From: an uncultured Smithella sp.
GTDB taxonomy: Bacteria > Desulfobacterota > Syntrophia > Syntrophales > Smithellaceae
Direction: 5' to 3'
NCBI GenBank assembly: GCA_964394185.1
Contig: CAYMWM010000003.1
Span: 1,193-65,192 of the forward strand
DNA: 64,000 bases
The notes under the pieces were generated by a model. The model searched no databases. It was given only the letters and a program-made list of their open reading frames with translations, and was not told the DNA's origin. Made by a program: the position numbers and the translations under genes. How positions within the stretch are numbered: the first letter of the stretch is position 1; every line of letters starts with the position of its first letter. This document shows positions 2,237 to 48,724 of the stretch, one piece after another.

Positions 2237-2272
2237 TTATATTATTACAAAAATAGAGGCGCTTATTTTTTG

Positions 2273-3691: not shown

Positions 3692-3785
3692 ATGTGAATG
3701 TCCTTCCTGGATCAATTGATGCATGCCATTAATGATCATAAACAAGTTACCCGATTTAAGAAAATATTTTCAGCTTAATATTACT

Positions 3786-3816
3786 TTGACACGCCTAATC
3801 ATTGTATATATATAAT
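3786..3816 (+). promoter_or_regulatory. Sigma70-like promoter candidate (TTGACA, then TATATA at 17 nt or TATAAT at 19 nt)
   Basis: TTGACA at 3786-3791, TATATA at 3809-3814 and TATAAT at 3811-3816. This places a predicted start within a few nt of the ATG at 3823. The surrounding DNA is AT-rich, so a chance match is possible. Confidence 0.3.
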
Positions 3817-7657: not shown

Positions 7658-7809
7658 AAAATATGTCAATCACTTGTTTTATTATCAGGATTTGCTTTTA
7701 TTAACATCTGCGTATAAAATTTAAGCTTACCGCAAATGAACAGGTAAAAATAGTTCCAATTGCATGTGAGCTAATTTCTGCAAAAAGTTAAGGAGAATCT
7801 TTTGTATTC

Positions 7810-16234: not shown

Positions 16235-16321
16235 GAAATATACCTTTAACCGGAGAGAGATTTGTTTCCGGACAGTGTTGATGGAATTATAATAAATTGA
16301 AGATAGTTTGAAGAGAATGTA

Positions 16322-31199: not shown

Positions 31200-31990
31200 T
31201 GTTTGCAGCGGGATGCGATGTTGGTTCATTAACGTCCAAGGCCGTCATCATGAAGGACGGCAAGATCGTTGAATCCGTCATTATAAAATCAAAGGCACGA
31301 CCCTGGGAGTCGGCCGATGAGGTGATGAATATTGTACTATCGCGAGCCAACCTGACGATGCAGGATATCAAATACTGTGTCGGTACCGGCTACGGCCGCG
31401 ACAAGATATCTTTTATTAACGAGGCTGTCTCCGAGATTGCCTGCCACGGCATGGGAGCCCGCTGGCTGGTTCCATCCGTAAGAACGGTTATTGATATAGG
31501 TGGTCAGGACTGCAAGGCCCTGCGTCTGGATGACAAAGGCAATATGGTGAAGTTCATTACCAACGACAAATGCGCTTCGGGAACCGGACGGTTTCTCGAA
31601 GTGATGGCAAAAGTCATGCATCTGAATCTTGACGAACTGGGAGAGATGTCGGCGCGTTCCAGACAGCCCGTTACCTTTGCTTCGGCCTGTACGGTGTGGG
31701 CACAGGCTGACGTTATACAGCATTTGAATGACAAGGTGCCCATCGAAGACATTGCCGCCGGGGTCAATAACGCCATGGCCAGCCGTATGTCCACTCTCGC
31801 CAACAACATCGGTCTGGAGAGAGATGTGTGCATGACAGGCGGTGTAGCCAAAAACACTGGTGTGGTAAACGCGCTGGAAAAGCACCTTGGCATAAGGATT
31901 AAAAGGATTCGCCGCGAAGACCCGCAGCTTGCCGGCGCCATCGGCGCGGCGCTCTTTGCTGCGGAAAAAGCAAATGGAGGTGCTAAATGA
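31199..31990 (+). CDS. BcrAD/BadFG/HgdC-family (ASKHA) electron-activating ATPase, copy 1
   Basis: GCDVGSLTSKAV, IDIGGQDCK, DKCASGTGRFLE and TGGVAKN motifs. 263 aa. Confidence 0.85.
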   Translation: MFAAGCDVGSLTSKAVIMKDGKIVESVIIKSKARPWESADEVMNIVLSRANLTMQDIKYCVGTGYGRDKISFINEAVSEIACHGMGARWLVPSVRTVIDIGGQDCKALRLDDKGNMVKFITNDKCASGTGRFLEVMAKVMHLNLDELGEMSARSRQPVTFASACTVWAQADVIQHLNDKVPIEDIAAGVNNAMASRMSTLANNIGLERDVCMTGGVAKNTGVVNALEKHLGIRIKRIRREDPQLAGAIGAALFAAEKANGGAK

Positions 31991-32772
31991 TTACAGCGGG
32001 TTGTGATATCGGTTCTCTTACGGCCAAGGCCATTATTATGAAAGATGGAAAAATCATCGCCTCGGAAGTCATCCTTGCATCGGCTCAGCCTGAAAAATCG
32101 GCAACCGAAGTGATGAAACGTGCTATTGAAAAAGCCGGCATCAAAATGGAAGACATCGGATACTGCACGGGTACCGGCTACGGCCGTAAACACATCCCTT
32201 TCATGAATTCCGAAGAATCCGAAATTGCCTGCCATGCCAGAGGTGCGGTCTGGCAGGTACCTTCGGCTCGCACGGTGGTGGATATCGGCGGACAGGACGC
32301 CAAGGCTATCCGCGTGGATGAAAAAGGGAATGTCGAACGTTATGTTTACAACGACAAATGTGCTTCGGGCACAGGACGGTTCCTGGAGATTATCGCTGAT
32401 GCGTTGGACATTAAGCTGGAAGATTTGGGTTCCCTATCGGAAAAGGCAAAGGAAAAACTGACCCTTTCCAATCAATGCGTGGTTTTTGCTGAAACGGAAA
32501 TTATTTCCCTGGTGAACGATGGAAAAGAAATTGCCGACATTATCAATGCCCTGCATCAGGCCGTTGCCAACCGGGCGGCGTCATTGGCCAGAGGTATTCT
32601 TGTCGAGCCCGATGCCGTTATGACGGGCGGTGTAGCGAAAAATTCCGGCATGTTCGCGGCACTGGAAAGGGCTCTGGGTGTGAAACTGCACAAAGTGGAG
32701 AATCCCCAGATAAACGGGGCTCTGGGAGCGGCTCTTTTTGCAGCCGATAAAGTAAACGGTTCAGGGAAGTAG
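31987..32772 (+). CDS. BcrAD/BadFG/HgdC-family (ASKHA) electron-activating ATPase, copy 2
   Basis: GCDIGSLTAKAI, DIGGQDAK, DKCASGTGRFLE and TGGVAKN. 261 aa. ATGA overlap with copy 1. Confidence 0.85.
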   Translation: MITAGCDIGSLTAKAIIMKDGKIIASEVILASAQPEKSATEVMKRAIEKAGIKMEDIGYCTGTGYGRKHIPFMNSEESEIACHARGAVWQVPSARTVVDIGGQDAKAIRVDEKGNVERYVYNDKCASGTGRFLEIIADALDIKLEDLGSLSEKAKEKLTLSNQCVVFAETEIISLVNDGKEIADIINALHQAVANRAASLARGILVEPDAVMTGGVAKNSGMFAALERALGVKLHKVENPQINGALGAALFAADKVNGSGK

Positions 32773-32778
32773 GGGAAA

Positions 32779-33513
32779 ATGGAGCTTTTTGGAGAAACCC
32801 TCTCAGATATCAGAAAGTATATGGCGGGGAAAAACAGTGAGGCACGGGTTATAGAAGCGCAAAAAAATGCCTGGCCCCCGGGCGGGGGCAGAAATGTGGT
32901 TTTATCGGACGATATGGCGCTAGAATTGGGAAATCCCCAGATGAATTCCGTCTCCTGCCTGATATGGACACAAAATGCCGGTTTTGTTCATGACGGGAGA
33001 ATCAGTCTTATCGGTCCGGATATAAAAGAAAGCAGCGGGAAGAGTCTGCCCTTCGGGAAGATTGTTCTTGCCGAGGTTAGCGGATTTGATGAAGAGACGA
33101 CCTACGATAAATATAAGGAAATGGAAACCGTGCGATACGCTCTCGATCTTAAAGGATACATGATCAGGGCGGTATCGCAGTATCAGAGGGAATGGAGCCG
33201 AATCAGCAGGGAAGCCGTTCAAAAAGGTTTTTCCTTTGAAATCCTGGCCGGTTCTTTGAGAAATGAATATTTAAAGAAGGATTATATTCATGCCGTTGAA
33301 TTTATTTTTGTGACATCTAGCGCCGGTGATGTCGGTGAACTTCAGGAAATCACGAAAAACGTGGGCCGTAAGGTCAGCGCCCTCAACAAGATGTTAAGTG
33401 AAATGGATACCGATTGCGATGAGTGTGAGTACAACGATGTTTGTGATGAAGTCGATGAACTCAAAGGCATGAAAAAAAAGCGTGATGAAAAAAGGATAGG
33501 AACAAATGGATAA
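32779..33513 (+). CDS. Truncated acetyl-CoA synthase (AcsB/CdhC)-like protein lacking the Ni-binding A-cluster domain
   Basis: LIGPDIKESSGKSLPFGKIVL and EWSRISREAVQKGFSFE resemble the central GPD(I/L)..LPFG and W.RVSKD.A.K segments of ACS as I remember them. The protein ends at DCDECEYNDVCDE. Needs HMM confirmation. Confidence 0.55.
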   Translation: MELFGETLSDIRKYMAGKNSEARVIEAQKNAWPPGGGRNVVLSDDMALELGNPQMNSVSCLIWTQNAGFVHDGRISLIGPDIKESSGKSLPFGKIVLAEVSGFDEETTYDKYKEMETVRYALDLKGYMIRAVSQYQREWSRISREAVQKGFSFEILAGSLRNEYLKKDYIHAVEFIFVTSSAGDVGELQEITKNVGRKVSALNKMLSEMDTDCDECEYNDVCDEVDELKGMKKKRDEKRIGTNG

Positions 33514-34276
33514 AAAAACAAAGACGATAGCATTATGCGGAAAGGGCGGCGTGGGCAAAACATCTGTGTCGGCGCTGATGATCAAGGACCTTGCCCAAAG
33601 AAAAGACATCAAGGTGCTGGCCATAGATGCCGATCCGGCTGTGGGCCTCTGTACGGCGTTGGGCATACAAATCAGAAAGACCGTGGATGATATAAGAAAC
33701 GATTTAATCAAATCGATTAAAAAAGGAGAGGGGCAGGACAAAGCGGCCACGCTGAACATGCTCGATTACGAACTCTTTGATGCCCTGACGGAATTTAATA
33801 ATGTCGGATTGCTGGCGATCGGCAGGCCGGAATCCGAGGGTTGCTTCTGCAAGGTTAACTCTCTTTTAAAGGATATCATCCAGGATCTGGCGAAAAATTT
33901 CGATGTAGTTTTAATTGACGGGGAAGCCGGCGTCGAGCAGATCAACAGAAGAGTGATGAAAACAGTGGATCACCTGATTATGATATCCGATACATCAGCC
34001 AAAGGTGTGAATGTTGCCAACACCATCAAACATCTGGCCCAGGATAATAAGGCCGTGAATTATAAAAGCATCGGGATGATTTTGAACCGCGTTAGAGATG
34101 AACGTGAAGTTAAGGACATCGGAAAGAATACCTCCATTAATATTTTAGGCTGGCTGTCTGAAGACAACCTGATCAGGGAATTCGATTTTCACGGCAGGTC
34201 ATTTCTGGATTTTCCTGACGAAGCCGGTGCCAGCAAAACCGTAAAACAAATTATACAGGATTTGCAGATTAATTAG
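33506..34276 (+). CDS. CooC/AcsF-type MinD-family metal-insertion ATPase
   Basis: Deviant Walker A CGKGGVGKTS, IDADP, and a CxC motif in GRPESEGCFCKVNSLL, as in CooC nickel chaperones. The start overlaps the upstream stop by 8 nt. Confidence 0.75.
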   Translation: MDKKTKTIALCGKGGVGKTSVSALMIKDLAQRKDIKVLAIDADPAVGLCTALGIQIRKTVDDIRNDLIKSIKKGEGQDKAATLNMLDYELFDALTEFNNVGLLAIGRPESEGCFCKVNSLLKDIIQDLAKNFDVVLIDGEAGVEQINRRVMKTVDHLIMISDTSAKGVNVANTIKHLAQDNKAVNYKSIGMILNRVRDEREVKDIGKNTSINILGWLSEDNLIREFDFHGRSFLDFPDEAGASKTVKQIIQDLQIN

Positions 34277-35162: not shown

Positions 35163-36299
35163 ATGGCAACATCCGGAAAAACCATGAAGGTATTTGAAGA
35201 ACTTTTGGAAAGTCCGCAGAATCGTCTGGTTGAACAGGCTCTACAGGATGGACGCATACCCATTGCCTATTCATGTTCTTATGTTCCCGAAGCCCTGCTT
35301 ATGGCGGACAAACTTTTTCCCGTACGTCTGCACACGCCCGGTGTCGCAGGCACCGAAATTGCGGACAACTATCTTTCCAGCCTCACTTGTTCTTATACCC
35401 GCAGCCTGCTGGAATTTACTATGGATGATCGTTTCGATCAAATTAAAGGCTGGGTATTCGTACCCGCCTGCATTCATATGCAGAGGCTCTATGACAATCT
35501 GGAATATCTGAAACATCCGGTTTTCAATCATGTGCTGGATGTGCCGCGGAAAGTGAATAAGGACACACTGGAATGGATGGCCGAAGAACTGAAAATTCTG
35601 GCGGATAAACTTGCCGCGCATTTCGGCGTGGACATGAGCGATGATTCAATCAAAAGAGCTATTCGTCAATGGAACGACTTTGCCGCTGCCGTCCAGTCTA
35701 TCGGTGAGTTGCGTAAAAAACCAAATCCGCCCGTAACCGGCACGGAATTTCATCAAATGGTAATGGCCGCGCTGGCCTCGCCCAAGGACCTTATTTTACC
35801 GGTTATCTCCAATCTCAAAAAAGAACTGGATGAGCGGGAAGGCATCAAGAAATACCGGGCGCGTCTGATGATTGTCGGCGGTCATCTGCACGATCCGGAT
35901 TTCATCAAAATCATCGAATCACAGGGTGGCTTGGTTGTGGCGGACCGTTTCTGTACTGGGACGATTCCCGGCTTTAAAACCATAGGACTTAACGGAGGCA
36001 ACCCGTACAAGACTCTGGCTGAATATGCCTTCGACAAAACACTTTGCCCGCGGATGATGGAGGAATTCGACCGTCGGCTGAACATGATTATCGATACCGT
36101 AAAAGAATACAAGGTGGATGGTGTGGTGTTGGAGATCATCAAATTCTGCGATCTCTGGGGAGTGGATTCCATGCCGCTGGTAACCGCTTTGCGCGAGACG
36201 GGCATCCCGGTGCTCAAATTGGAGCGGGAATACCGGCTCGGCGGGGAAGGTCAACTGCGCACACGCGTGCAGGCTTTTATCGAAAGCATGGGTAAATAA
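35163..36299 (+). CDS. HGD-D family small (BcrC/HgdB-like) subunit, second set
   Basis: AYSCSYVPEALLMADKLFPVRL N-terminal motif, FVPACIHMQRL and IKFCDLWG. 378 aa. Confidence 0.8.
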   Translation: MATSGKTMKVFEELLESPQNRLVEQALQDGRIPIAYSCSYVPEALLMADKLFPVRLHTPGVAGTEIADNYLSSLTCSYTRSLLEFTMDDRFDQIKGWVFVPACIHMQRLYDNLEYLKHPVFNHVLDVPRKVNKDTLEWMAEELKILADKLAAHFGVDMSDDSIKRAIRQWNDFAAAVQSIGELRKKPNPPVTGTEFHQMVMAALASPKDLILPVISNLKKELDEREGIKKYRARLMIVGGHLHDPDFIKIIESQGGLVVADRFCTGTIPGFKTIGLNGGNPYKTLAEYAFDKTLCPRMMEEFDRRLNMIIDTVKEYKVDGVVLEIIKFCDLWGVDSMPLVTALRETGIPVLKLEREYRLGGEGQLRTRVQAFIESMGK

Positions 36300-36316
36300 T
36301 TTGATAAGGAGAATGC

Positions 36317-37831
36317 ATGAAACTCAATACGGTTATTGATAATACCAAAGCCAAAATGATGGATTTGCCATTCATTACAAAGAGATTTCTTCGAAACTCC
36401 TGGGCCGGATACCTTTTTCGCGGACCGAATCCCCGCGATGCGGCTGTTTTTATAAAATACTGGATTATGAACTGGGCGGCTATTTTCTACTGGATTGGCG
36501 AATCTATAATTAAACTGGGCCCTGTCGGATTCACCCGCGCGCTGATTAAAAATCCCTGGATACTGATTTTGCTCAGGGTCAATGGCGCCTCCAACCGTAT
36601 GGTGCTCGGTCGAACCGGCATGTATCACGATTCCATCTGTCTGACCATGCATACCATTTGTCTGGGCGTAATCGATCAACTGCGCCAGATGCTGTTTGAT
36701 CCCGAGCGCCTGGTTGTCTTCGAGGATCTCGTTCCCTATGATATCGGACGGGCTATGGGATTGAACTGTTACCTGCTCGAACTGATGGGTATTGTTTTGC
36801 CCATTCTCTATTCCGATGCTTCCTTGCCGTACATCGATGAAGCGGAAAACTCGGGTATGAATCCCGATGCCTGCAGTTTACCCAAGGCCACCGTGGGCAT
36901 GGTCATCAAGGGTCATATGCCCAAAGGGGTGGCCATGGTAAGTTCCAACATGCCCTGCGACGCGGGGGCTGCCTCCTATGCCTTCATCGAGCGCGCCTTT
37001 AATGTTCCCACCTACCGGGTGGACGCGCCTTATTTTTTCTACAACGAACGGGCGGAAAAGCTGTTTGGCAAGGATATTGACGGCATGATTGCCTGGCTGG
37101 AGGAACATACCCCCGGACGCATGGACTGGGATGAAATGCGCAAAATCTGTGAAGGCCGCAACCGCATGCTGGAAATGGAGACGGAGCTCTGGGAAATGAT
37201 TAGAGTCAAACCCGCGCCGCTGGCCTGCGAGGCGGTGTGGTTGAGCCACATCTGGCATTTCAATGTCACGGCTGGTTATCACCGGTCGGTCAAATTTTAT
37301 GAAAAGCTCCTAAAAATGGCGCGCAGAAATTATGAAAATAAAATTTCCGCCACAAAAAATGAGAGATATCGGGCGGTGCTCTGGAACCCGCCGTTTCTCC
37401 ATTTCAGCGATATTTTCAACTGGGTAGAACGCACCTACGGTGTAGTTCTTATCAATGACAGCATGACTTACAATCATCATGGTCCCATCGATACGACCTC
37501 GAAGGAAACCATGATCAGGGATTGGGGCAGGACCGTCATGCAGGGGCCCATGGTTCGCCATACGCGCGGACCGGCTGAGAACTATCTGGACGATATTTTC
37601 CGCATGTATGAGCAGTTCAGTCTCGATATGGTCTGGGTAGCCAACCATGTGGGGTGTAAAGGCGGTCAGGCCATGAACGGCATCCTGCGGGAGCGGTGCC
37701 GCGCCAAAGGCATTCCCCTGCTCATTCTGGATTACGACCTCTCCGATCGAAGGATCGTATCGCATGACAACATGATGAAGCAGGTGGATTTCTTTATGGA
37801 AAACGTCATGAAGGCAAATCGCCTGAATTAA
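36317..37831 (+). CDS. HGD-D family large subunit with ~110-aa hydrophobic N-terminal extension (copy A)
   Basis: 504 aa. DACSLPKATVG, SNMPCDAGAASY and VANHVGCKGGQA conserved Cys segments. About three-quarters of aligned positions look identical to 40071-41591 by eye. Confidence 0.8.
   Translation: MKLNTVIDNTKAKMMDLPFITKRFLRNSWAGYLFRGPNPRDAAVFIKYWIMNWAAIFYWIGESIIKLGPVGFTRALIKNPWILILLRVNGASNRMVLGRTGMYHDSICLTMHTICLGVIDQLRQMLFDPERLVVFEDLVPYDIGRAMGLNCYLLELMGIVLPILYSDASLPYIDEAENSGMNPDACSLPKATVGMVIKGHMPKGVAMVSSNMPCDAGAASYAFIERAFNVPTYRVDAPYFFYNERAEKLFGKDIDGMIAWLEEHTPGRMDWDEMRKICEGRNRMLEMETELWEMIRVKPAPLACEAVWLSHIWHFNVTAGYHRSVKFYEKLLKMARRNYENKISATKNERYRAVLWNPPFLHFSDIFNWVERTYGVVLINDSMTYNHHGPIDTTSKETMIRDWGRTVMQGPMVRHTRGPAENYLDDIFRMYEQFSLDMVWVANHVGCKGGQAMNGILRERCRAKGIPLLILDYDLSDRRIVSHDNMMKQVDFFMENVMKANRLN
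37538..37818 (+). repeat. Near-identical 281-nt tract shared with 41295-41575 (3' ends of the duplicated HGD-D genes)
   Basis: Gap-free collinear alignment at offset 3757. It includes a 41-nt run of perfect identity (cggtgccgcgccaaaggcattcccctgctcattctggatta), so synonymous sites are conserved. Confidence 0.85.
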
Positions 37832-37847
37832 AGATAGAGGAGTTACA

Positions 37848-39158
37848 ATGGGTCACATTGCTGCCAAGGACATATTTCGCCGGGTTGGAGATAAACTGGA
37901 TAGCCTCCATGTCCGATGCTCGTGGAATGATGATCTCAAGGCATTGTTGAAGGCGCTCTTTACCGAAGAAGAGGCCGAAATTTTTGTCAAGATGCCTTAT
38001 GTGTTTTCGGACTTGAATCGCATAAGCAAGATTACCAGATTGCCAAGAGAGCATACTCGGCAATTACTTAATAGCTTATGCAGCAAGGGGCTCGTCGTAG
38101 ATATCTGGATTAACGACCGCTATCATTATATGCCCTCGCCCATGATCATCGGCGTGTTTGAATTCACCATGATGCGAACAGGCAAAGACGCCAAACCCGC
38201 AGAATGGGGACCGCTGTTTTATCGAGTGCTCGAGAACAAAGAGAGTTTCTACCATCCCAATGCGGGAGCAGATCAGGTTATGTCACCGGCGAGAGTCTAT
38301 CTTCATGATGAATCTGTCCTGCCGGATGAATACACGCGCATATTGGACTACGAATCGGCCACACACATCATAGATACATCCTCGAAATGCGCTATAGGTA
38401 TCTGTTCCTGCCGTCATGAAAAATTGCATGCGGGCGTAAAAAAATGCGACCTGCCTCTAGAAACCTGCGCCAGTTTCGGTTGGGCTGCCGATTACCTCGT
38501 CCGCCATAAAATGGCGCGCGAGGTTACGAAAGAACAGATGAAGGATAATATGGCCCTATCCCGTGAAAAAGGTCTGGTCTTTTGCGGCGACAATGTCCGG
38601 CGCAATGTAACCTTTATCTGTCAATGCTGTTCCTGCTGCTGCAACCTGTTGCTGGGAGTTAACCGGCACGGCTACCCCAATACGCTTGTGACATCAAGCT
38701 TCATCGCCACGGTGGATGAAGCTGCATGCACGGGCTGCACCAAATGTTACAAGGCCTGTCCGGTAGAGGCCATTGAAATAATTGAAAAGCAAGCTTCCGC
38801 CAAACCCCGCAAACTGGCTGTCGTCAAAGAAGATTTGTGTCTCGGATGCGGCGTATGCACAATGCAATGTGCCCAAAAGGCTATTAAAATGGAAAAAAGA
38901 CCGGAGCGCTACATTCATCCGGAAACGACTTTTGAGCGGGTGTTGCTGCAATGCCTGGAGCGGGGCACGCTGCAAAACCAGATATTCGACAATCCCGAGA
39001 GCCTTTCTCAGGAATTCATGCGTGGTTTGATTAAAGGGTTCATGAAACTTGTACCCGCCAAACAGATTGAGATGAATAAAACATTACGATCCAGTTTTCT
39101 GGCTTTGGGCGGAATGGTCATCAGCCTGAAGAACAAAAGCTGGATCAAGGAACTTTAA
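37848..39158 (+). CDS. Cys-rich Fe-S protein: N-terminal winged-helix-like region, CxxxCxC and CxCCxCCC motifs, plus 2x[4Fe-4S] ferredoxin motifs (copy A)
   Basis: CAIGICSCRHEKLHAG..C..C, FICQCCSCCCNLL, CTGCTKCYKACP and CLGCGVCTMQC. 436 aa. Confidence 0.75.
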   Translation: MGHIAAKDIFRRVGDKLDSLHVRCSWNDDLKALLKALFTEEEAEIFVKMPYVFSDLNRISKITRLPREHTRQLLNSLCSKGLVVDIWINDRYHYMPSPMIIGVFEFTMMRTGKDAKPAEWGPLFYRVLENKESFYHPNAGADQVMSPARVYLHDESVLPDEYTRILDYESATHIIDTSSKCAIGICSCRHEKLHAGVKKCDLPLETCASFGWAADYLVRHKMAREVTKEQMKDNMALSREKGLVFCGDNVRRNVTFICQCCSCCCNLLLGVNRHGYPNTLVTSSFIATVDEAACTGCTKCYKACPVEAIEIIEKQASAKPRKLAVVKEDLCLGCGVCTMQCAQKAIKMEKRPERYIHPETTFERVLLQCLERGTLQNQIFDNPESLSQEFMRGLIKGFMKLVPAKQIEMNKTLRSSFLALGGMVISLKNKSWIKEL

Positions 39159-39181
39159 ATAAATACATGAAGGAGATTGAC

Positions 39182-39973
39182 ATGACGAAGAAATATTACG
39201 GCGGCTGCGATGTCGGCTCCACAACCGGCAAAGCGGTCATTCTTGATGAAAGCGGCAACATGGTTTCCAGCGCCATCGTTCCCAGTGAAATTGATCCGGA
39301 ATTGACCTCTGTATTGGCTCTGGAGAAGGCCTGCGCAATGGTGGATGGCTTAAAAAGCTACAAAGAGCTGGCTTATCTTGTGGGTACGGGCTACGGGCGG
39401 AATGAGGTCTCTTTTGCCAACGAAAATATTTCTGAGATCAGCTGCCACGCCATGGGGACTTTTTCCTGCGCGCCTTTAGTCAAAACTATTGTGGATATCG
39501 GCGGGCAGGATGTAAAAACGATTTCCTTAAACGGCGATGGTTCGGTGCTGGAATTTGCCATGAACGATAAATGTGCCGCCGGTACAGGAAGATTCTTCGA
39601 GGCCATGAGCCGTATCTTCCGGATGGATCTCAATGAATTTTCATCGCTGTCTTTGAAGGCCAACAAGATTATTCCGGTTACCGCCCAGTGCAGTGTCTTC
39701 GCGGAGAGTGAGGTCATCAGTCTGCTGGCGCGCCGCAATCCTCCCGAAGAAGTAGCAGCAGGAATTCAGGCGGCGGTTTCCAAGCGCTGCTTCACATTGC
39801 TCAAACGAATCGGTATGCAGCCTCTGGTGACCGTGACGGGTGGATGCGCCAAAAGCAAGGGACTGATTAAATCATTGACCAAAGTCATTGGCATGGAAGT
39901 GACGCCTCTGCCGGTAGATCCCCAGATAATTGGCGCACTGGGAGCTGCTGTATTTGCCCGACGCCGGCAGTGA
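39182..39973 (+). CDS. BcrAD/BadFG/HgdC-family (ASKHA) activator ATPase, copy 3
   Basis: GCDVGSTTGKAV, DIGGQDVK, DKCAAGTGRFFE and TGGCAKS. The ATG at 39182 follows AAGGAG; the track start is 39167. Confidence 0.85.
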   Translation: MTKKYYGGCDVGSTTGKAVILDESGNMVSSAIVPSEIDPELTSVLALEKACAMVDGLKSYKELAYLVGTGYGRNEVSFANENISEISCHAMGTFSCAPLVKTIVDIGGQDVKTISLNGDGSVLEFAMNDKCAAGTGRFFEAMSRIFRMDLNEFSSLSLKANKIIPVTAQCSVFAESEVISLLARRNPPEEVAAGIQAAVSKRCFTLLKRIGMQPLVTVTGGCAKSKGLIKSLTKVIGMEVTPLPVDPQIIGALGAAVFARRRQ

Positions 39974-40070
39974 ATATAGTAGTTGATAATTTTGGTGCTT
40001 TAAAAATTAAATTGGAAAAGAGGCCAGTCTTATTCGGAAGCAGGAACAACGTATTTATGGTGAGTCTTAC

Positions 40071-41591
40071 GTGAAGTTTAATACTGCCATTGACGACACC
40101 ATGACCAATATCTTGCGCCTGCCGGATTACGTGAAGGGTTTCCTGAAGCGATCGCTCATCGGATATCTTTTCAGTGCGTCGCATCCGCGGGATGTGCTTG
40201 TTTTTACAAAATATTGGATCCTAAACTGGGTGGCAATTTTGCATTGGATAGGGCAGTCCATCTTTAAACTCGGTCCCATCGTCCTTGGCCGCGCTTTGAT
40301 TAAGCATCCGTGGATATTGATTTTACTTCGTGTCAATGGCCTCACCAATCGTGTGGCGCGCGGTAAAACCGGTGTGTATCATGATGCGCTTTGTCTGATT
40401 GTTCACACCATTTGTTTGGGCGTTATTGAAGAATTGCGCAACATGCTGTTTGATGCGGAGCATTTGGTCATTTTCGAAGATCTTGTCCCTTATGATATCG
40501 GCAGGGGCATGGGTTTAAATTGTTACATGCCTGAACTGTGGGGTATTATCCTGCCCATTCTAACATCCGAGGCCACCTTGAAATATATTGATGAAGCTGA
40601 AAACTCGGGTATGAATCCCGACGCGTGCAGTCTGCCTAAGGCCACGGTGGGAATGGTTCTCAAAGGTCATGTTCCCAAAGGCATTGCCATGGTCTGTTCC
40701 AATATGCCCTGTGACGCTGGCGCTGCTTCCTACTCGGTCATTCAACGCGCGTTTGGCAATATACCGGCCTACCGGTTGGACGCGCCTTATAATTTTTACA
40801 ATGAGCGCGCGGAAGAGTTTTTTGCCAGAGATGTCATGGGCATGATCTCCTGGTTGGAGAAACACACTCCCGGACGGATGGATTGGGGTCGGATGCGAGA
40901 GATATTCCAGGGACGCAACCGCATGCTGGAGCTTGAGACGGAACTTTGGGAAATGAACCGGATCAGACCGGCTCCTCTGGCGGGTGCCGCGGTCTGGTTG
41001 AGTCACTTGTGGCATTTCAATGTCTCGGCCGGGAGTCCGGCATCGGTGCGATACTATGAAAAGCTGGTTAAACTGGCACGCAAAAATTATGAAAATAAAA
41101 TTCCTGCCACAAAGAATGAACGATACCGGGCGGTGCTCTGGAACCCGCCTTTTATGCATTTCAGTGATATTTTCAACTGGGCTGAACAGAAGTATGGCGT
41201 TTTAATAATCAACGACAGCATGACCTACAATCACCATGAACCCATTGACACAACGTCACCGGAAACCATGATAAAAGGCTGGGCCAGGACTATCATGCAG
41301 GGTCCTATGGTGCGTCACACACGCGGACCGGCTGAAAATTATCTCGATGATATTTTCCGAATGGTCGAGCAGTTCAGTCTCGATATGGTCTGGGTTGCCA
41401 ACCATGTGGGGTGCAAGGGCGGTCAGGCTATGAACGGTATCCTGCGGGAACGGTGCCGCGCCAAAGGCATTCCCCTGCTCATTCTGGATTATGACCTCTC
41501 CGATCAAAGGATCGTATCGCACGACAACATGATGCGGCAGGTGGATTTTTTTATGGAAAACATCATGAAGGCAAAGTGTATCGATAAGTAA
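40071..41591 (+). CDS. HGD-D family large subunit with hydrophobic N-terminal extension (copy B, no adjacent small subunit)
   Basis: GTG start. 506 aa. Collinear with 36317-37831, and the last ~90 aa are nearly identical. Confidence 0.8.
   Translation: MKFNTAIDDTMTNILRLPDYVKGFLKRSLIGYLFSASHPRDVLVFTKYWILNWVAILHWIGQSIFKLGPIVLGRALIKHPWILILLRVNGLTNRVARGKTGVYHDALCLIVHTICLGVIEELRNMLFDAEHLVIFEDLVPYDIGRGMGLNCYMPELWGIILPILTSEATLKYIDEAENSGMNPDACSLPKATVGMVLKGHVPKGIAMVCSNMPCDAGAASYSVIQRAFGNIPAYRLDAPYNFYNERAEEFFARDVMGMISWLEKHTPGRMDWGRMREIFQGRNRMLELETELWEMNRIRPAPLAGAAVWLSHLWHFNVSAGSPASVRYYEKLVKLARKNYENKIPATKNERYRAVLWNPPFMHFSDIFNWAEQKYGVLIINDSMTYNHHEPIDTTSPETMIKGWARTIMQGPMVRHTRGPAENYLDDIFRMVEQFSLDMVWVANHVGCKGGQAMNGILRERCRAKGIPLLILDYDLSDQRIVSHDNMMRQVDFFMENIMKAKCIDK
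41295..41575 (+). repeat. Partner copy of the 37538-37818 tract
   Basis: Same alignment as above. Confidence 0.85.
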
Positions 41592-41622
41592 GGTTGTTTT
41601 TATTTCATGAGGCATAGGAGAC

Positions 41623-42939
41623 ATGCGTATGCATATGGCCACTAAAAAGACAGCTTATCATAAGCTGGGGGAAAAGATAGACAACCTGCATGTAAAATCA
41701 CCCTGGAATGAAACATGGCATCATATCCTTAAGGAGTTATACACCATTGAGGAGGCTGATGTGGTGGTCGGGATGCCCTATACTCTTTCAACACTGGAAA
41801 GAATATCGCAGATAACCGGAATTGAGGGCACCAGACTTCAGAACATTCTGGAGAGCTTGTGCAGAAAAGGGCTTGTTATGGATGTATGGAATGTGGATCA
41901 CGGCCGGTACTATTATCTGCCCTGGCCTATAGCCATAGGGATTTTCGAATTTACCATGATGAGGACCGATAGAGATCTCAACAAGAAGAAAATAGCGGAA
42001 CTCTTTCACGAATACTTCGGTTCCGTGCACGCTGCTAATTTTTCAAACGATGAAAAAATTTCAGCGCTACGCGTCATTCCCGTTGAAGAATCTATATCCA
42101 ACGGCAATCATACGGTGTTTTTCAATTACGAAAAAGCCACATCGATCATCGAAAGTTCGGATAAGTATGCCATCGGCCTTTGCTCCTGCCGGAACGAAAA
42201 ACTGCATGCTGGAGCCGGGACTTGCGATGCGCCTATGGATTCCTGCAGCCTCTTGGGGATTGGTGCGGATTACGGGATCAGAAATAAACTCGCCAGGCAG
42301 GTCACGAAATCTGAAATGCTGGATAACTTAGCCCGGTCAAAAGAATATGGTCTGGTATTCTGTGCCGTCAACACTCAAAAGAATCCGGTGGCCATCTGCC
42401 ACTGCTGCAAGTGCTGCTGCAACTTTTTAGGCGGATTGACCAAATACGGATATCAGAATTGCGTCGTTACATCCAATTTCATTTGCCGGATCGATGTCGA
42501 CAAGTGCAAAGGATGCGGTCGATGCGTTAACGCATGTCCGGTCAATGCTTTGAGTATGGTGTCGGCAAATGATCCTCGGAACATGAAAAAGAAAATATGC
42601 CTGCTCAATACGAAAATATGCGTGGGCTGCGGTGTTTGTGTAAACAAATGTGTCGGCAAGGCCATTGAGATGATACCGCGGGAGAACAGGGTTATTCATC
42701 CGGAGTCTCTTTTCGAAGTGATTATGATGGCGGCACTTGAACGCGGCACCCTGCAGAACCAACTGTTTGATAATCCATTGAGCATAACGCAGCATTACAT
42801 GAGAACCTTTGTCGGGGCGTTTCTGAAGCTTGAATCGATCAAACAGGTTTTTATGAGCAATCTTTTCCGATCCATATTCTTATCATCGGCAAGGGGAATT
42901 GCCAGAATGCAGGGCAAGCGTTGGATGCTGGATCTATAA
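41623..42939 (+). CDS. Cys-rich Fe-S protein (copy B), paralogue of 37848-39158
   Basis: YAIGLCSCRNEKLHAG, ICHCCKCCCNFL, CKGCGRCVNACP and CVGCGVCVNKC. The start could be 41623, 41629 or 41635 (MRMHM). Confidence 0.75.
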   Translation: MRMHMATKKTAYHKLGEKIDNLHVKSPWNETWHHILKELYTIEEADVVVGMPYTLSTLERISQITGIEGTRLQNILESLCRKGLVMDVWNVDHGRYYYLPWPIAIGIFEFTMMRTDRDLNKKKIAELFHEYFGSVHAANFSNDEKISALRVIPVEESISNGNHTVFFNYEKATSIIESSDKYAIGLCSCRNEKLHAGAGTCDAPMDSCSLLGIGADYGIRNKLARQVTKSEMLDNLARSKEYGLVFCAVNTQKNPVAICHCCKCCCNFLGGLTKYGYQNCVVTSNFICRIDVDKCKGCGRCVNACPVNALSMVSANDPRNMKKKICLLNTKICVGCGVCVNKCVGKAIEMIPRENRVIHPESLFEVIMMAALERGTLQNQLFDNPLSITQHYMRTFVGAFLKLESIKQVFMSNLFRSIFLSSARGIARMQGKRWMLDL

Positions 42940-43631: not shown

Positions 43632-44381
43632 ATGGCAAAAAAACCGATAGATAATCTCTCCCGGCTGTATACGTATAAAGAGGGTATGGAATGGAATCCT
43701 GTGGAAAAGGTCATCATGGAGCGGCGCAGTATCCGGAATTTCAAAAAACAGCCGGTTCCCGACAATATGATCAGAAGAATTCTTGAGGCCGGGAGATTCG
43801 CACCTACGGCGGGTAACGCCCAGCCCTGGAAATTCGTTGTCATCAAGGATCAGGCGCTGATTGCGGAAATGGAAAAAGAAACAATCAAATTCAGTAAATT
43901 GCTCATGTGGTTTGTTGATTATAATCGCAATGCCTTCCGGAGCGTATTTCTTGCTCCTTATACAAAGTTTATGACGCGGTTGATGCCCAATAAGCTTCAT
44001 CCCATCCCTTTCAACCTGCTCCAGCAGATAGCGGCGGAAAAAACACCGGTTTACCACAATGCTCCGGTGATGATCCTGCTGATGATAGATAAAAGGGGCG
44101 TCGGCAATCCTGTTTTGGATACGGGAATCTGCGGACAGAACATGGTTCTGGCTGCCCACAGTTTGGGCTTGGGAACCTGCTGGGTCGGCATGATAACCGT
44201 ATTGATGATGAATCCCCTTTGGCGGAAAAAATTGGGAGTAGCCTCTCCTTATGAACTTACCGATTGTCTTGTTTTAGGCTGGCCCAAAGGCGATTATGAC
44301 GGCGAGGTGGAAAGAGAGGTCCAATTGGTTGAGTGGATTGATGAAAACGGAGTAAAAAGAATAGAGAGTCAGGGAGTTTGA
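43632..44381 (+). CDS. Nitroreductase-family flavoprotein
   Basis: RRSIRNFKKQPVP....ILEAGRFAPTAGNAQPWKFVVI is the classic nitroreductase N-terminal signature. Confidence 0.8.
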   Translation: MAKKPIDNLSRLYTYKEGMEWNPVEKVIMERRSIRNFKKQPVPDNMIRRILEAGRFAPTAGNAQPWKFVVIKDQALIAEMEKETIKFSKLLMWFVDYNRNAFRSVFLAPYTKFMTRLMPNKLHPIPFNLLQQIAAEKTPVYHNAPVMILLMIDKRGVGNPVLDTGICGQNMVLAAHSLGLGTCWVGMITVLMMNPLWRKKLGVASPYELTDCLVLGWPKGDYDGEVEREVQLVEWIDENGVKRIESQGV

Positions 44382-44737
44382 TTGATATGTTAAATTTGGC
44401 ACTGGGTAAAAAAAATAAGATACCGAATTATTTCAAAGAGAATCAAATGACTTACGGCATTGTAATGTTCGATCCGAAGGCGTGCACGGGTTGCGGGATT
44501 TGCGTCTCCCTTTGTCCGGCGCGGGGCTTGATTCTTGCCAGAAGATCCGAAGATTCCAAAAAGAAAATTCCGTTGATGATACAGCCGGCACTGGGAATAT
44601 CGCTGTGCATGGCCTGCGGAGATTGCCGGGCTGCCTGTCCCGAAAATGCCATCAGCATAAAGCAGGGATTCAATACCAGGTTCTTTTACCGAAAGTTGTC
44701 TCAAAAACCGGACATGACCGGGCCTAAGAAATATTAG
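44378..44737 (+). CDS. 2x[4Fe-4S] ferredoxin
   Basis: CTGCGICVSLCP and CMACGDCRAACP. 119 aa. ATGA-type overlap with the nitroreductase gene. Confidence 0.8.
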   Translation: MIDMLNLALGKKNKIPNYFKENQMTYGIVMFDPKACTGCGICVSLCPARGLILARRSEDSKKKIPLMIQPALGISLCMACGDCRAACPENAISIKQGFNTRFFYRKLSQKPDMTGPKKY

Positions 44738-44763
44738 TTTTGCAACAAGGAGGAAGTAAATCA

Positions 44764-46155
44764 TTGAAGCCGACCCCTAAACCTTTCGAATATCTCAAGT
44801 GGAGCGCTGATTTCCTGAATCTGGGCTATTACGTCAGTGTTTTCCCCTCTCTGGCTTACTGGTCGATGAAGTTAACCAGGCCTCTCTATGTTCAGGGGGA
44901 GAATTTTTTTAACCGCAAGGTGCGCTGGTCGTTTCTCACCATGGGTGCCGGCGTTGCTCCACCTGAAGACATTCGTGCCTACCGTTATGGAGTAAGGGCT
45001 TTTGTTGATAATTTTAAAAATGCCATGAAGGCGAATGAGGATGGCAAGCCGGTTGTGTGGGTCGAATGGATACTGTCCTCCGAAATCGTCGGGGCCTTCG
45101 ATGCTGTAGCTTTCAACCCGGAAACGCTCAGCGTGTTCGGAAATATGTCCGGTAAGGACATACCGTCTATGTTGATAGAAGAAGCGGAAAGCAGAGGGTT
45201 TGCTTCCGAATATTGTTCTGCCATCAAAGTCACGGCGGGAGCCTACATGCTGGGACAAAGCCCGCAGCCTGCGGCAATAGTTGCAGGCTCTCATCCCTGT
45301 GATACGAATGTTTCCGCATATCAGAGTATTGCCCATCTTACGGGAGCACCGGTCTATTATTTTGATGCCCCCTACTGGAGGGACGAGGATTCCTATAATT
45401 ACTACGAAACAAGAATGTGGGATCTTGTCGCCTTTTTGGAAAAAAATCTTCACCAGAAAATCGACTGGGACAGGCTCAAGCAGATTGTGGATAATGAAAA
45501 CAAATTTAATTTTTATCTGCACGAAATCTGTGAGATGATGCGGGCCGTTCCTGCCCCGGCCAGCATGATTACGCTTGTTTTTGCCTGGATCGTGCGGGAA
45601 ATAGGTATCGGTGATTCCAACGGAACCGAGATGGCCAGACTCATGTATGAAAACACCAAAGACCGTTACAAAAACGGCAGGGGTGTTGTCAAAAAGGAAA
45701 ACATTCGCGTCTTATGGTGGAATCCGCCCATCGCTTTTTTCAGCTATGTTTTTAAGTGGATGGAAGATGAGTTTGGTGCCGTTGTTGTCAAAGATTTTAT
45801 TGGCGATGTTCAGGTGCCCCAGATTGATACCTCCACGGAAAAAACCATGATTCGCGGATTGGCGGAGAACCATCTCTTTCTGGCAATGGCCAGACAATGC
45901 CGTGGACCGGTGGAATTCATTATCGAGGAGTTGGAGCAGGCCATCGAAGAATATTCGCCAGACTGCCTGATTTTTGCCGGACACGCGGGTTGCAAACATG
46001 GCTGGGGCGTTATCGGCATTATCAAGGATGTACTGAAAAAGCGGGGCCTGCCGTCTTTATTTATGAACATGGACATCATGGATCAGAGGCACGCCACAGA
46101 AGATGATATCAAAGGCTGGATAAGGGAATTTTTCAGGAGCAATGGATTCGCATGA
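44764..46155 (+). CDS. HGD-D family large (HgdA/BcrB-like) subunit, third set
   Basis: EYCSAIKVTAG, SHPCDTNVSAY and GHAGCKHGWG Cys segments. The TTG at 44764 follows AAGGAGGA; the track uses the TTG at 44740. Confidence 0.75.
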   Translation: MKPTPKPFEYLKWSADFLNLGYYVSVFPSLAYWSMKLTRPLYVQGENFFNRKVRWSFLTMGAGVAPPEDIRAYRYGVRAFVDNFKNAMKANEDGKPVVWVEWILSSEIVGAFDAVAFNPETLSVFGNMSGKDIPSMLIEEAESRGFASEYCSAIKVTAGAYMLGQSPQPAAIVAGSHPCDTNVSAYQSIAHLTGAPVYYFDAPYWRDEDSYNYYETRMWDLVAFLEKNLHQKIDWDRLKQIVDNENKFNFYLHEICEMMRAVPAPASMITLVFAWIVREIGIGDSNGTEMARLMYENTKDRYKNGRGVVKKENIRVLWWNPPIAFFSYVFKWMEDEFGAVVVKDFIGDVQVPQIDTSTEKTMIRGLAENHLFLAMARQCRGPVEFIIEELEQAIEEYSPDCLIFAGHAGCKHGWGVIGIIKDVLKKRGLPSLFMNMDIMDQRHATEDDIKGWIREFFRSNGFA

Positions 46156-47339
46156 AAACAATACTTGATAAAACAAAAGAAATCTCCTCTTCGACTTCCA
46201 ACCATTATCTGGACGAAGCCAAAAAACAGGGAAAGGGCATTATCGGATATTTTTGCTCTTATATGCCTGAAGAAATCATTCATGCCGCCGGATTTATTCC
46301 GTACCGCATGCGCGCGGTGAAAAGCAAGGGAACAACGAAAGCTGACGCTTATTATTCTTCAATCAATTGTACCTTTGTCAAACATTGCTTCAATAAGGCA
46401 TTAAACGGCGAATTTGATTTTCTTGACGGCGTGGTTTTTCTCAACGGCTGCGATCATTCCCGGCGTATGTATGATAACTGGCGTTATGCCGGAATCAGAC
46501 ATTCATTCCTGCATATGTTTTTTGTGCCTCATGTTATCAGCGATAGTGCTTATGAACATTTCACTCTTGAGTGCAAAAAGCTCAAGTCATCTCTGGAAAA
46601 TCATTTTAAGGTGTCCATTAGCGACGATACACTCAGGAAATCAATCGGTCTTTATAACGAGAAGCGGCGGCTTTTGACGGAGATTTATGCCTTGAGAAAG
46701 AAAAAAGATGTTCCCGCCAAAGCCAGCGAGATTTTGGGCGTTTTACTGGCAATCACGGCGGTACCTCTCGAACTGGCCTTAGAAATACTGACAGAAGTAA
46801 AAGATTTTCTTAAAGGGCGTGTCGTTTCCAAACCCGGGGAACCACGTCTTTTTCTCTCAGGAGGTTGTATCGAGGAGATAGAGCATCTGGAACTCATCGA
46901 AGATTGCGGCGCTTCCATTGTGGCCGATAACATCTGCCTGGGCACGCGTCATTTTCTGGGTGAAGTGGAGCTGGAAGGAGATCCCTGGCAGGCTGTCGCT
47001 CATCGATACTTAAATCATCTTTCCTGCCCGCGAATGATGGGCGAATTTAACCGGAGATTTGATTATTTAATGAATATTAAAGATGAATACAGCATTGATG
47101 GCATCATCATTGAAAAATTGAAGTTTTGTGATTTATGGGGAGGGGAAATATATCTCTATCGCGCAGAATCAAAAAACAAAAATATTCCTTTGCTGTTCAT
47201 GGAGAGGGAAGTATATGGAGGCGGCACCGGACAGATCAAAACAAGGGTACAGGCTTTTCTGGAAAAGATTAAGAATAAGCAAACGACGGATGAGAGTTTA
47301 GTTCAGGCGGCCGGAGCTGATTATAGACCAAAATTATGA
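46152..47339 (+). CDS. HGD-D family small (HgdB/BcrC-like) subunit, third set
   Basis: GYFCSYMPEEIIHAAGFIPYRM N-terminal motif, LNGCDHSRRM and LKFCDLWG. 395 aa. Confidence 0.8.
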   Translation: MKTILDKTKEISSSTSNHYLDEAKKQGKGIIGYFCSYMPEEIIHAAGFIPYRMRAVKSKGTTKADAYYSSINCTFVKHCFNKALNGEFDFLDGVVFLNGCDHSRRMYDNWRYAGIRHSFLHMFFVPHVISDSAYEHFTLECKKLKSSLENHFKVSISDDTLRKSIGLYNEKRRLLTEIYALRKKKDVPAKASEILGVLLAITAVPLELALEILTEVKDFLKGRVVSKPGEPRLFLSGGCIEEIEHLELIEDCGASIVADNICLGTRHFLGEVELEGDPWQAVAHRYLNHLSCPRMMGEFNRRFDYLMNIKDEYSIDGIIIEKLKFCDLWGGEIYLYRAESKNKNIPLLFMEREVYGGGTGQIKTRVQAFLEKIKNKQTTDESLVQAAGADYRPKL

Positions 47340-47359
47340 AGTAAATAAGGAAGGAAATT

Positions 47360-48724
47360 ATGAACAAAGCAGGAAGTGATTACGAATACATAATCGTCGG
47401 TACGGGACCCGGAGGCGGTCCTGTGGCCAGAGAGTTAGCCAGAGCGGGCAAAAAAGTGCTCATGGTGGAAAAAGGAGATTACCACAAAAAGTTTCTTGGT
47501 CTTCCCTTTGGTATCCGATTATTGGAACGTTATATGCTTTTTGCAAGGTCCTTGGAAGGCGTAATTATCGAGCGCGGCATTACGGTCGGCGGTTCTTCCA
47601 TGGTTTACCAGTCCAACGTCATGGAACCTCCCAAAAAGTTGATAGACAATATGGGAATAGATTTCAGCCCGGAGGCAAAGGAACTCAAAAGTGAAATCGG
47701 TGTCGAGGTCCTGCCGGAGCGCTTTTACCGGAACAACAAGGGGCTGTCCCGGATGCTGGAAGCGGCCGAAAAGATGGGTATACCCTTCCGGGAGCAGGAA
47801 AAATTCGTTCATGCCGATAAGTGCAAACTGGGCTGCGACTGGTGCATGCTGGGTTGTCCGGAAAATGCCCGCTGGACAACAAGAGAGCATGTGGAAGAGG
47901 CAAAGTCATACGGCGCCGGACTCATTTATAATTCGCCCGTCCACAATGTCCTTTTTAATGCTGGTAAAACAAAGGCAACCGGGGTGCAGTTGAGTAACGG
48001 TACCGTCATCAACGGTGATAACGTCATTCTCGCCGCCGGAGGAATCGGTTCTCCGGCCATTCTCTTAAGATCGGGAATAAAAAAATTGGGAACACAGGAC
48101 GTAGGGACGAGATTCTTCATGGATCCCATGAACATCATGCTGGGTTACAGTAAAGATCCTGACGGTGGATTGTGGGGGATACAGACCTTCACGCACGCCA
48201 TTGAATCTATGGCTCAGAGCGAAGGCTTTATGATCGGGAACTGTTCCGCCTTCGGAACATGGACGGTTTTATCTTTCTTCCGCTTGAAAACAGCAAAAGA
48301 AAATCTGCCCAAATTCCCTATCATGAGAAGGGGGATGGGATTATTTCTGAAACTCTCCGACGAAGCGCGCGGTCAGATTTATCCAAATGAAAAAACCAGC
48401 AAGCCGTTCACGGAAGTCGATGAGAAGAAGCTGAAGAAAGGAACGGATATTATGCGGGAGATCATTATAAAATCGGGTGGTGATCCCAAAACGATTTCCA
48501 TTCTCAAGTGGGCAGGCGGTCATCCCGGCGGGACGCTTGCTATGGGGCAGGCGGTCAACAGGGATTTCTCAACCGAGATTGAGAATCTCTATGTCTGCGA
48601 CGGCAGCACCATGCCCGTGTCGCCCGGCGCTCCGCCTTCGCTTTCCATTTGTTCCATGTCAAAGCTTCTGGGAAAGATGCTTTTGGGCAAGGTGAAGGCT
48701 GAAGAACGGTTCGTAAATAAATAA
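47360..48724 (+). CDS. GMC-family FAD-dependent oxidoreductase
   Basis: YIIVGTGPGGGPVARELA..KVLMVEKG (FAD ADP-binding motif) and C-terminal LYVCDGSTMPVSPGAPPSLSI, typical of the GMC C-terminal domain. Confidence 0.8.
   Translation: MNKAGSDYEYIIVGTGPGGGPVARELARAGKKVLMVEKGDYHKKFLGLPFGIRLLERYMLFARSLEGVIIERGITVGGSSMVYQSNVMEPPKKLIDNMGIDFSPEAKELKSEIGVEVLPERFYRNNKGLSRMLEAAEKMGIPFREQEKFVHADKCKLGCDWCMLGCPENARWTTREHVEEAKSYGAGLIYNSPVHNVLFNAGKTKATGVQLSNGTVINGDNVILAAGGIGSPAILLRSGIKKLGTQDVGTRFFMDPMNIMLGYSKDPDGGLWGIQTFTHAIESMAQSEGFMIGNCSAFGTWTVLSFFRLKTAKENLPKFPIMRRGMGLFLKLSDEARGQIYPNEKTSKPFTEVDEKKLKKGTDIMREIIIKSGGDPKTISILKWAGGHPGGTLAMGQAVNRDFSTEIENLYVCDGSTMPVSPGAPPSLSICSMSKLLGKMLLGKVKAEERFVNK

Follow-up and report, generated by a model that had tools for sequence, protein, structure and literature searches.

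Gene conversion limited to the 3' ends of two old paralogous catalytic-subunit genes in a predicted radical-enzyme cluster of Smithella

Among the described systems closest to the locus reported here, DCCP is a homodimer. In the core of class I benzoyl-CoA reductase (BCR), BzdNO, Cys95, Cys128 and Cys380 of BzdO are the ligands of a [4Fe-4S] cluster, Cys36/73/100/263/293/327 of BzdN are those of an [8Fe-9S] cluster, and the interface between the subunits involves both alpha/beta domains (PMC11971306). On the genetic side, conversion tracts have been described in bacteria (PMC5485169, PMC8022953). Here we analyze a stretch of 64,000 nucleotides (hereinafter the window) from an uncultured Smithella sp. 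(assembly GCA_964394185.1, contig CAYMWM010000003.1, positions 1,193 to 65,192 of the forward strand), and within it a six-gene plus-strand cluster running from 35163 to 42939, with one small-subunit gene, two catalytic (large) subunit genes, A1 and B1, two Fe-S protein genes, A2 and B2, and one activator ATPase gene (Table 1). The gene order, with two pairs of a large-subunit and an Fe-S gene and the activator gene between them, had been proposed in a first-pass annotation made from the sequence alone, and is borne out by gene calls and Pfam matches. Our analysis establishes that A1 and B1 are old paralogs, with a synonymous divergence (dS) of ~1.5, which split before the window lineage separated from that of a second locus, L003, and from several other Smithella lineages. 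Their concerted evolution by gene conversion is limited to the 3' end and continued after the split between the window and L003.

The two catalytic-subunit genes are 75% identical at the protein and 76% at the nucleotide level and align with one single-codon indel, their offset being 3754 upstream and 3757 downstream of it; a dN/dS of ~0.1 indicates purifying selection on both copies. The divergence is unevenly spread along the genes. Only 40% of the first 30 codons are identical, in keeping with the diverged N-terminus noted earlier, and the Nei-Gojobori dS stands at 1.47-1.58 over codons 30-432 as against 0.27 over codons 432-500. The dS comparison, with this drop from ~1.5, thus refutes the alternative of uniform synonymous divergence along the gene pair. 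The low-dS segment (hereinafter the tract) has 13 mismatches in 209 nt (93.8% identity) and includes the longest exact match between the copies, the 41-nt perfect run that the first-pass annotation had singled out at the offset of 3757; direct comparison recovered both run and offset. That annotation had further described the last ~280 nt as almost identical, which is an overstatement even for the 209-nt homogenized part and more so for the full length: 37538-37818 (281 nt) shows 27 mismatches against the other copy (90.4% identity), 14 of them in the first 72 nt, where the synonymous divergence is ordinary. At the other end, the similarity ceases 3-5 codons short of the stop codons, and what follows between the genes is unrelated in the two copies.

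Several statistics single out the same segment. At codons specifying the same amino acid in both copies, 50 of the 59 third positions in the tract are identical, versus 57% elsewhere. Codons 432-500 are the best-scoring segment in maximal-segment permutation tests, both with third positions that are polymorphic in a set of 23 homologues (window, p = 2e-4; L003, p = 1e-4) and with strictly synonymous sites, defined as third positions of codons that agree in amino acid and in their first two bases (p = 0.0076 and 0.0004, respectively). Only this mismatch-tolerant test is significant, the longest uninterrupted run of concordant third positions in the window having p = 0.12. The A1/B1 pair of L003 displays the same fall in dS, to 0.29 within the tract, and whereas both within-genome pairs yield a significant segment, none is found in the cross-genome paralog pairs. 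When the A-clade and B-clade genes of other genomes are compared over this segment, their identity is 0.81, versus 0.94 in the window.

The locus L003, on a JGI metagenome contig from a different sample, presents the small-subunit gene, A1, A2, the activator gene, B1 and B2, followed by the same downstream genes as in the window; compared with the window, its proteins show 89-95% identity (89% for the B1 ortholog) and its nucleotide sequence ~87%. Since it carries both copies in the same order, the A1/B1 duplication is older than the window/L003 split, which provides a relative date from orthologous loci of the kind that had been proposed with the first-pass annotation. Designating the window genes wA1 and wB1 and those of L003 xA1 and xB1, we find that the quartet-informative sites outside the tract favor orthology at 160 positions, grouping by genome at nine and cross pairing at 17. 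Within the tract the corresponding counts are two, seven and zero (Fisher p = 3.8e-7 versus outside). Neighbor-joining trees of 23 genes display the same switch: outside the tract {wA1,xA1} and {wB1,xB1} each have 100% bootstrap support, whereas in the tract the four sequences form one clade (96%), inside which wA1 groups with wB1 (82%) and xA1 with xB1 (91%). A search for further genomes with both modules via A2-type homologues (P0124, P0128, P0131) recovered a single module in each, and the A+B arrangement was found in the window and L003 only.

We prefer conversion to uniform divergence because dS falls in the tract, the permutation tests single it out and the phylogeny switches there, and we hold with considerable confidence that the best overall explanation is one of old paralogs in a cluster of the BCR/dehydratase family, which probably serve as alternative catalytic subunits and whose 3' ends were homogenized by recurrent gene conversion. 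We advance the following scenario. The last ~70 codons would have been homogenized by non-reciprocal homologous recombination between direct copies lying 3.76 kb apart, initially in an organism ancestral to both the window and L003 lineages, with at least one further event in each lineage after their split. Within the C-terminal domain, the tract probably corresponds to the final beta-alpha-beta-alpha unit and includes the third of the Cys residues that ligate the catalytic [4Fe-4S] cluster; in the AlphaFold2 (AF2) model of A1 it spans a strand (438-443), the loop with Cys447, a helix (450-464), another strand (468-472) and the C-terminal helix (483-497). Since it ranks among the gene's two most conserved segments at the nucleotide level, it would supply the exact matches needed for recombination, and the near-invariance of the encoded protein sequence would allow the converted products to be tolerated. 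The first-pass annotation had spoken of ongoing gene conversion: the mosaic produced by conversion is upheld by dS, permutation and phylogeny, but "ongoing" applies only loosely, given that a dS of ~0.27 has since accumulated in the tract. The conversion is less extensive and less recent than had been thought.

Certain observations weigh against this scenario or limit its reach. The tract is short, with 209 nt, ~42 synonymous sites and nine quartet-informative sites, so that the timing and number of the events are weakly resolved. The orthologs are also closer to each other in the tract (dS 0.34-0.44 versus 0.65 outside), and some lowering of the synonymous rate, or exchange between lineages, might lie behind this. 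A segment at codons 175-245 is equally conserved yet unconverted, and hence sequence identity alone does not explain the position of the tract. We also sought the tract in ten other loci with two large-subunit genes (L011, L032, L012, L017, L014, L016, L022, L019, L038 and L048), where the signal is weak or absent, with best p-values of ~0.01-0.05 located elsewhere in the gene; the phenomenon is thus not general to the family. Nor did a search for a donor clade return a clear one, the identity of the tract to other genomes being 0.72-0.87. As a separate observation, a short metagenome contig (L030, 2-2402) bears the 3' end of a B1-like gene and, after ~450 bp, a second B1-like gene, with neither an Fe-S nor an activator gene between them; the two are 84% identical at synonymous sites over 141 overlapping codons, as might result if the duplication were more recent or the conversion wider.

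How, then, do explanations without recombination fare? Purifying selection on a C-terminal domain conserved across the family, combined with codon bias, might in principle produce a well-conserved 3' end: over the last 95 residues the identity is 84-94% even with homologues for which it is ~60% elsewhere, the segment is among the most conserved in nucleotide sequence across clades (0.81), and the dS between orthologs is somewhat lower there. However, it would leave the excess of identical third positions at same-amino-acid codons and the far higher identity of the within-window pair, relative to A- and B-clade genes of different genomes, unaccounted for, and the switch from orthology to grouping by genome is beyond the reach of selection at the protein level; we consider this account very improbable. 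A close cousin of it, which we rate as slighter still, places the constraint on the nucleotides themselves, with an RNA structure, an internal promoter or a signal for translational coupling of the Fe-S gene restraining synonymous sites in the 3' end. The tract does end a few codons before the stop, just upstream of the start of the Fe-S gene, and the z-score of its predicted RNA fold is -1.71, a stability matched by 10 of 200 shuffled sequences. Yet this z-score is not significant, the tract has no Rfam match, and the intergenic regions and last codons differ between A and B. Moreover, single-copy orthologs vary freely at the synonymous sites of the tract, with those of L001, L005, L013 and L008 showing many synonymous changes over the same codons, and such an element offers no reason for paralogs to group by genome.

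A collapsed or chimeric repeat in the assembly is an explanation to which we give almost no credence, although the source is probably a metagenome-assembled genome (MAG) and an exact repeat of 41 nt does break short-k assemblers. Logan contigs (k=31) from two sequencing runs match 37705-41480 (L058) and 37705-39420 (L059) with no mismatch. Both contigs break within the 41-nt repeat at a depth of exactly 30 nt (k-1), L058 doing so at its start and its end in the two copies, as a true repeat predicts. Further, the 13 mismatches on both sides of the 41-mer are not producible by collapse, and L003, from a separate sample, has the same architecture and tract. The most serious of the alternatives concerns recurrence rather than conversion as such: a single conversion before the window/L003 split might have been followed by ordinary divergence. 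The union of the four tract sequences in one clade, the mere nine informative sites and a cross-genome tract dS (0.34-0.51) only slightly above the within-genome values (0.27-0.29) are all compatible with it, and one older event, together with a lowered synonymous rate, is a minor possibility. Against it stand the majority of tract sites that favor grouping by genome over orthology, the bootstrap values for both within-genome pairs and the restriction of significant segments to those pairs, and on balance we regard it as unlikely.

The history of the Fe-S genes is rather different from that of the catalytic subunits. The first-pass annotation had estimated by eye that roughly half of the Fe-S protein positions are identical, and the computed identity between A2 and B2 is about 44-44.7%. 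The A2 family is widespread, with proteins of ~437 aa and 2983 homologues, many of which carry the annotation "4Fe-4S binding protein". For ~100 homologues from other phyla, the mean identity is 51.6% with A2 and 50.7% with B2, and the two of them whose surroundings we inspected do not lie beside HGD-D genes. In the Fe-S tree, the A2-type proteins join stand-alone homologues, apart from the B2-type, which is a different deep subfamily. In the large-subunit tree, the A clade (L001, L013, L005, the window and L003) is sister to the B clade (L025, the window, L003, L023, L008 and L024). The linkage of the two genes also varies across related loci: a B1+B2-type module is the only one in L008, L023 and L024, where it directly follows the small-subunit gene, an A1+A2-type module is the only one in L065, and in L001, L005 and L013 the A-clade large subunit is followed by an Fe-S gene of a third (C) type. 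Consequently, the depiction of the locus as a tandemly duplicated two-gene module is only loosely true, because A2 and B2 are less similar to each other (44.7%) than to homologues from outside (~51%) and other genomes have an A- or B-type module alone. This occurrence of either module by itself also places the A/B split before several Smithella lineages, and the B module may have been added as a second variant rather than duplicated in place.

We also observed that the Fe-S gene lying between the large-subunit and activator genes (11527-12840 in L001/L005/L013, 7001-8311 in L065 and 11555-12868 in L008) belongs to one of three deep types (A2, B2 and C), which replace one another in loci that are otherwise close relatives. 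This suggests cassette exchange, with the conserved 3' end of the large-subunit gene on one side of the swapped Fe-S gene and the activator gene on the other. Judging from these sequences, the Fe-S genes appear to be exchangeable cassettes whose divergence is much older. One locus, L001 (HGW-Deltaproteobacteria-13), has no B1-type gene and codes, ~1.3 kb downstream of the activator (14968-16266), for a fourth and very divergent Fe-S paralog, 32-34% identical to A2/B2.

The presence of two catalytic-subunit genes raises the question of how they are partnered. As the first-pass annotation had noted, B1 lacks a small-subunit gene of its own: no second one accompanies it. Combinations of one small-subunit and two large-subunit genes, in varied arrangements, recur in at least 10 related loci, namely those listed above in which the tract was sought. 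Hence, it is plausible from the gene content that the product of the single small-subunit gene is shared by A1 and B1, which would most likely act as alternative catalytic partners of one six-Cys subunit and one activator. Their divergent N-terminal and middle parts would then form different substrate channels, with the small subunit and the activator held in common. The earlier proposal that a homogenized interface underlies the C-terminal conservation is not required, since the high identity of the last 95 residues is family-wide and includes genomes with a single copy; the identity of the C-terminal protein sequence thus needs no shared partner. By analogy with BzdNO, in which both alpha/beta domains contribute to the interface, the tract is plausibly near the subunit interface. 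A more speculative extension, which we entertain only tentatively and consider rather doubtful, is that the 3'-limited conversion is more than neutral and is retained by selection: two catalytic subunits would have to dock on one double-cubane subunit and its activator, and homogenization would preserve the co-adaptation of the C-terminal unit near the cluster, while the parts forming the substrate channel and the Fe-S proteins diversify, and the 3' end would serve as the joint at which the Fe-S cassettes (A2, B2 and C) are swapped.

As for the enzyme itself, the superfamily placement is straightforward: both subunits score above the gathering cutoff of the Pfam HGD-D family (PF06050; 28.4 bits), a three-Cys site is combined with a BzdO/HadB fold, and a BcrAD_BadFG ATPase gene is adjacent, its product exceeding the cutoff of the acyl-CoA dehydratase activase model TIGR00241 (125.4 bits). 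A1 matches BzdO (8s02_A) with E = 3e-8, the PDB sequence matches also including MbdO. Its AF2 model (pLDDT 84.7) recovers 8s02_C in Foldseek searches (E = 5e-15, TM-score 0.78) and HadB (3o3m; TM-score 0.81), and overall matches BzdO, MbdO, HadB and DCCP with target-normalized TM-scores of 0.72-0.81. Cys186, Cys214 and Cys447 of A1, the predicted [4Fe-4S] ligands, are invariant in 51 homologues and align with Cys95, Cys128 and Cys380 of BzdO, with Cys128 requiring a one-residue shift of the printed alignment. With the same uncertainty of one residue in the register of that alignment, the position of BzdO His131, the acid-base partner of Glu65 at the water-ligated cluster, corresponds to Ala216 or Gly217 of an invariant PCDAG motif. 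The small subunit has exactly six Cys (38, 76, 103, 264, 295 and 329), all invariant in 42 homologues, which match the ligand positions of BzdN and hence the pattern of an [8Fe-9S] double-cubane cluster, predicted here from sequence. A fourth invariant Cys was also noted in the large subunits (A1 Cys461, 37697-37699; B1 Cys462), in an RERCR motif on the helix 450-464 within the tract; the aligned BzdO position has no Cys. In addition, residues 1-126 of A1 (36317-36700) comprise an extra, partly hydrophobic and all-helical N-terminal region of ~90-125 residues relative to BzdO; it is here that A1 and B1 differ most.

Specific assignments are less forthcoming. The best NCBIfam model for the small subunit is double_cubane (NF040772) with 158.8 bits, below its cutoff of 350, and the equivalog models for BzdO (TIGR03191; 34.8 bits versus 448.6), BzdN (TIGR03190; 99.8 versus 453.8), HadB (NF052455; 20.4 versus 750) and HadC (NF052456; 106.7 versus 700) all fall short of theirs. 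A BzdPQ-type pair of ATPase genes is likewise absent from the module, where a single ATPase gene separates A2 from B1; the two ATPase genes at 31199-32772 go with a separate HGD-D pair upstream. Since no equivalog model for BCR, HAD (2-hydroxyacyl-CoA dehydratase) or DCCP is reached and there is one activator gene, we conclude that the cluster in all probability encodes an uncharacterized branch of the benzoyl-CoA reductase/2-hydroxyacyl-CoA dehydratase radical-enzyme family.

Table 1. Genes of the six-gene cluster and the homogenized segments of A1 and B1 (positions in the window)
Feature	Position	Strand	Evidence
Small subunit, BzdN-like, HGD-D, 378 aa	35163-36299	+	Pfam HGD-D, E = 2.4e-84, 284 bits
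A1, BzdO/MbdO/HadB-like catalytic (large) subunit, 504 aa	36317-37831	+	Pfam HGD-D, E = 2.5e-52, 179 bits
A2, Cys-rich Fe-S protein, 436 aa, 2x[4Fe-4S] ferredoxin domain at residues 286-350	37848-39158	+	Pfam Fer4 families
Activator ATPase, HgdC/HadI type, BcrAD_BadFG	39167-39973	+	PF01869, E = 1e-50; TIGR00241, 220.7 bits
B1, paralogous catalytic subunit, GTG start, 506 aa	40071-41591	+	Pfam HGD-D, E = 1.6e-53, 183 bits
B2, Fe-S protein, 438 aa	41623-42939	+	Alignment to A2, Pfam, tree
Conversion tract, copy A (A1 codons 432-500)	37610-37818	+	Mismatch count, dS, maximal segment, site patterns
Conversion tract, copy B (matching B1 codons, offset 3757)	41367-41575	+	As for copy A
41-nt perfect repeat	37694-37734 and 41451-41491	+	Longest exact match between the copies

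In protein searches, relatives come from Smithella, Smithellaceae and Syntrophaceae MAGs; the exact A1 protein was not recovered, its best match being 84% identical, and the exact A2 protein is present (P0121). Our literature search found no papers on the Smithella cluster and none accessible on the MbdONPQ complex, and a scan for promoters and terminators returned nothing informative. The wider neighborhood is rich in related genes, with three distinct BCR/HAD-type systems within ~20 kb, and the other HGD-D pairs, at 28651-31199 and 44740-47339, are much more distant. Upstream lies a separate BCR-like set, with HGD-D genes at 28651-29772 and 29793-31199 and BcrAD ATPase genes at 31199-31990 and 31987-32772, followed by genes for a 244-aa protein that matches only the middle of the acetyl-CoA synthase CdhC (PF03598) and for a CooC/MinD-like ATPase; the order of this region (28651-34276) is kept in all Smithella loci that we fetched. 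In one of the related contigs, L067, the upstream BCR-like set contains two tandem HGD-D genes of 467 aa (921-3810), and an A2-type Fe-S gene (7001-8311) directly follows the CooC-like gene, with no small- or large-subunit gene beside it. Downstream, in the region 43632-48724, a third HGD-D pair (44740-46155 and 46152-47339, with a 4-nt overlap) is flanked by genes for a nitroreductase, a small Fer4 protein and a GMC-type oxidoreductase, an arrangement that is syntenic in L003.

In terms of its broader significance, the mechanism is textbook concerted evolution and unsurprising in itself. It has, nevertheless, a practical consequence: trees of these catalytic subunits must drop the last ~70 codons, because their inclusion makes the paralogs look younger than they are. 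Beyond this, we draw attention to a conserved, uncharacterized locus of the Smithellaceae, in which a predicted six-Cys subunit and an activator are combined with one or two exchangeable catalytic subunits and with exchangeable Fe-S proteins. If the catalytic subunits do share an electron-input module, the locus would be a natural case of modular expansion of substrate range among ATP-driven radical enzymes in syntrophic bacteria. If, further, selection retains the conversion, syntrophic Smithella would possess a system with one electron-input module and several catalytic heads.

Set against the known enzymes, the cluster resembles each only in part. BzdNO, the class I BCR core (PDB 8S02), is the best PDB match of A1 both by sequence and by fold, and likewise pairs two HGD-D-fold subunits, a six-Cys small one and a three-Cys large one. 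However, the identity is a mere 17-20%, the scores against the bzdO and bzdN models are far below cutoff, and the Smithella locus has a single activator gene in place of a BzdPQ-type pair, the extra helical N-terminal region of ~90-125 residues and an attached gene for a 436-aa Fe-S protein; at the His131 position a Gly/Ala is apparent, in an alignment uncertain by one residue. The dehydratases HadBC/HgdAB, with their homodimeric activators HadI/HgdC (PDB 3O3M), are similar in the fold (TM-score 0.81 to HadB) and in having a single activator gene that passes TIGR00241, and HadB is reported to have no His at the BzdO His131 position (PMC11971306), where the alignment of A1, uncertain by one residue, shows none either. 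They differ in that the HadB and HadC models are far from being reached and that the small subunit of the Smithella cluster has the six-Cys BzdN/DCCP pattern. With DCCP and DCCP-R (PDB 6ENO, 7YYL) the cluster shares double_cubane as the best small-subunit model, the six-Cys motif and a partner ATPase encoded by a single gene. Unlike in those systems, a distinct three-Cys catalytic subunit stands beside the six-Cys one, and the double_cubane score remains well short of its threshold.

The genetic process, in turn, has familiar counterparts, the duplicated tuf genes and the rRNA operons being examples of the concerted evolution of bacterial paralogs by RecA-dependent gene conversion. Such cases are similar in involving non-reciprocal homogenization of direct-repeat paralogs in one chromosome, and they resemble A1 and B1 in the combination of a low-dS tract, sharp borders and grouping by genome inside it. 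In contrast to such cases, only the last ~70 codons of otherwise old paralogs are affected here, the tract is 94% identical instead of being fully so, and the partners encode catalytic subunits that are diverging in function, unlike housekeeping genes with redundant copies.

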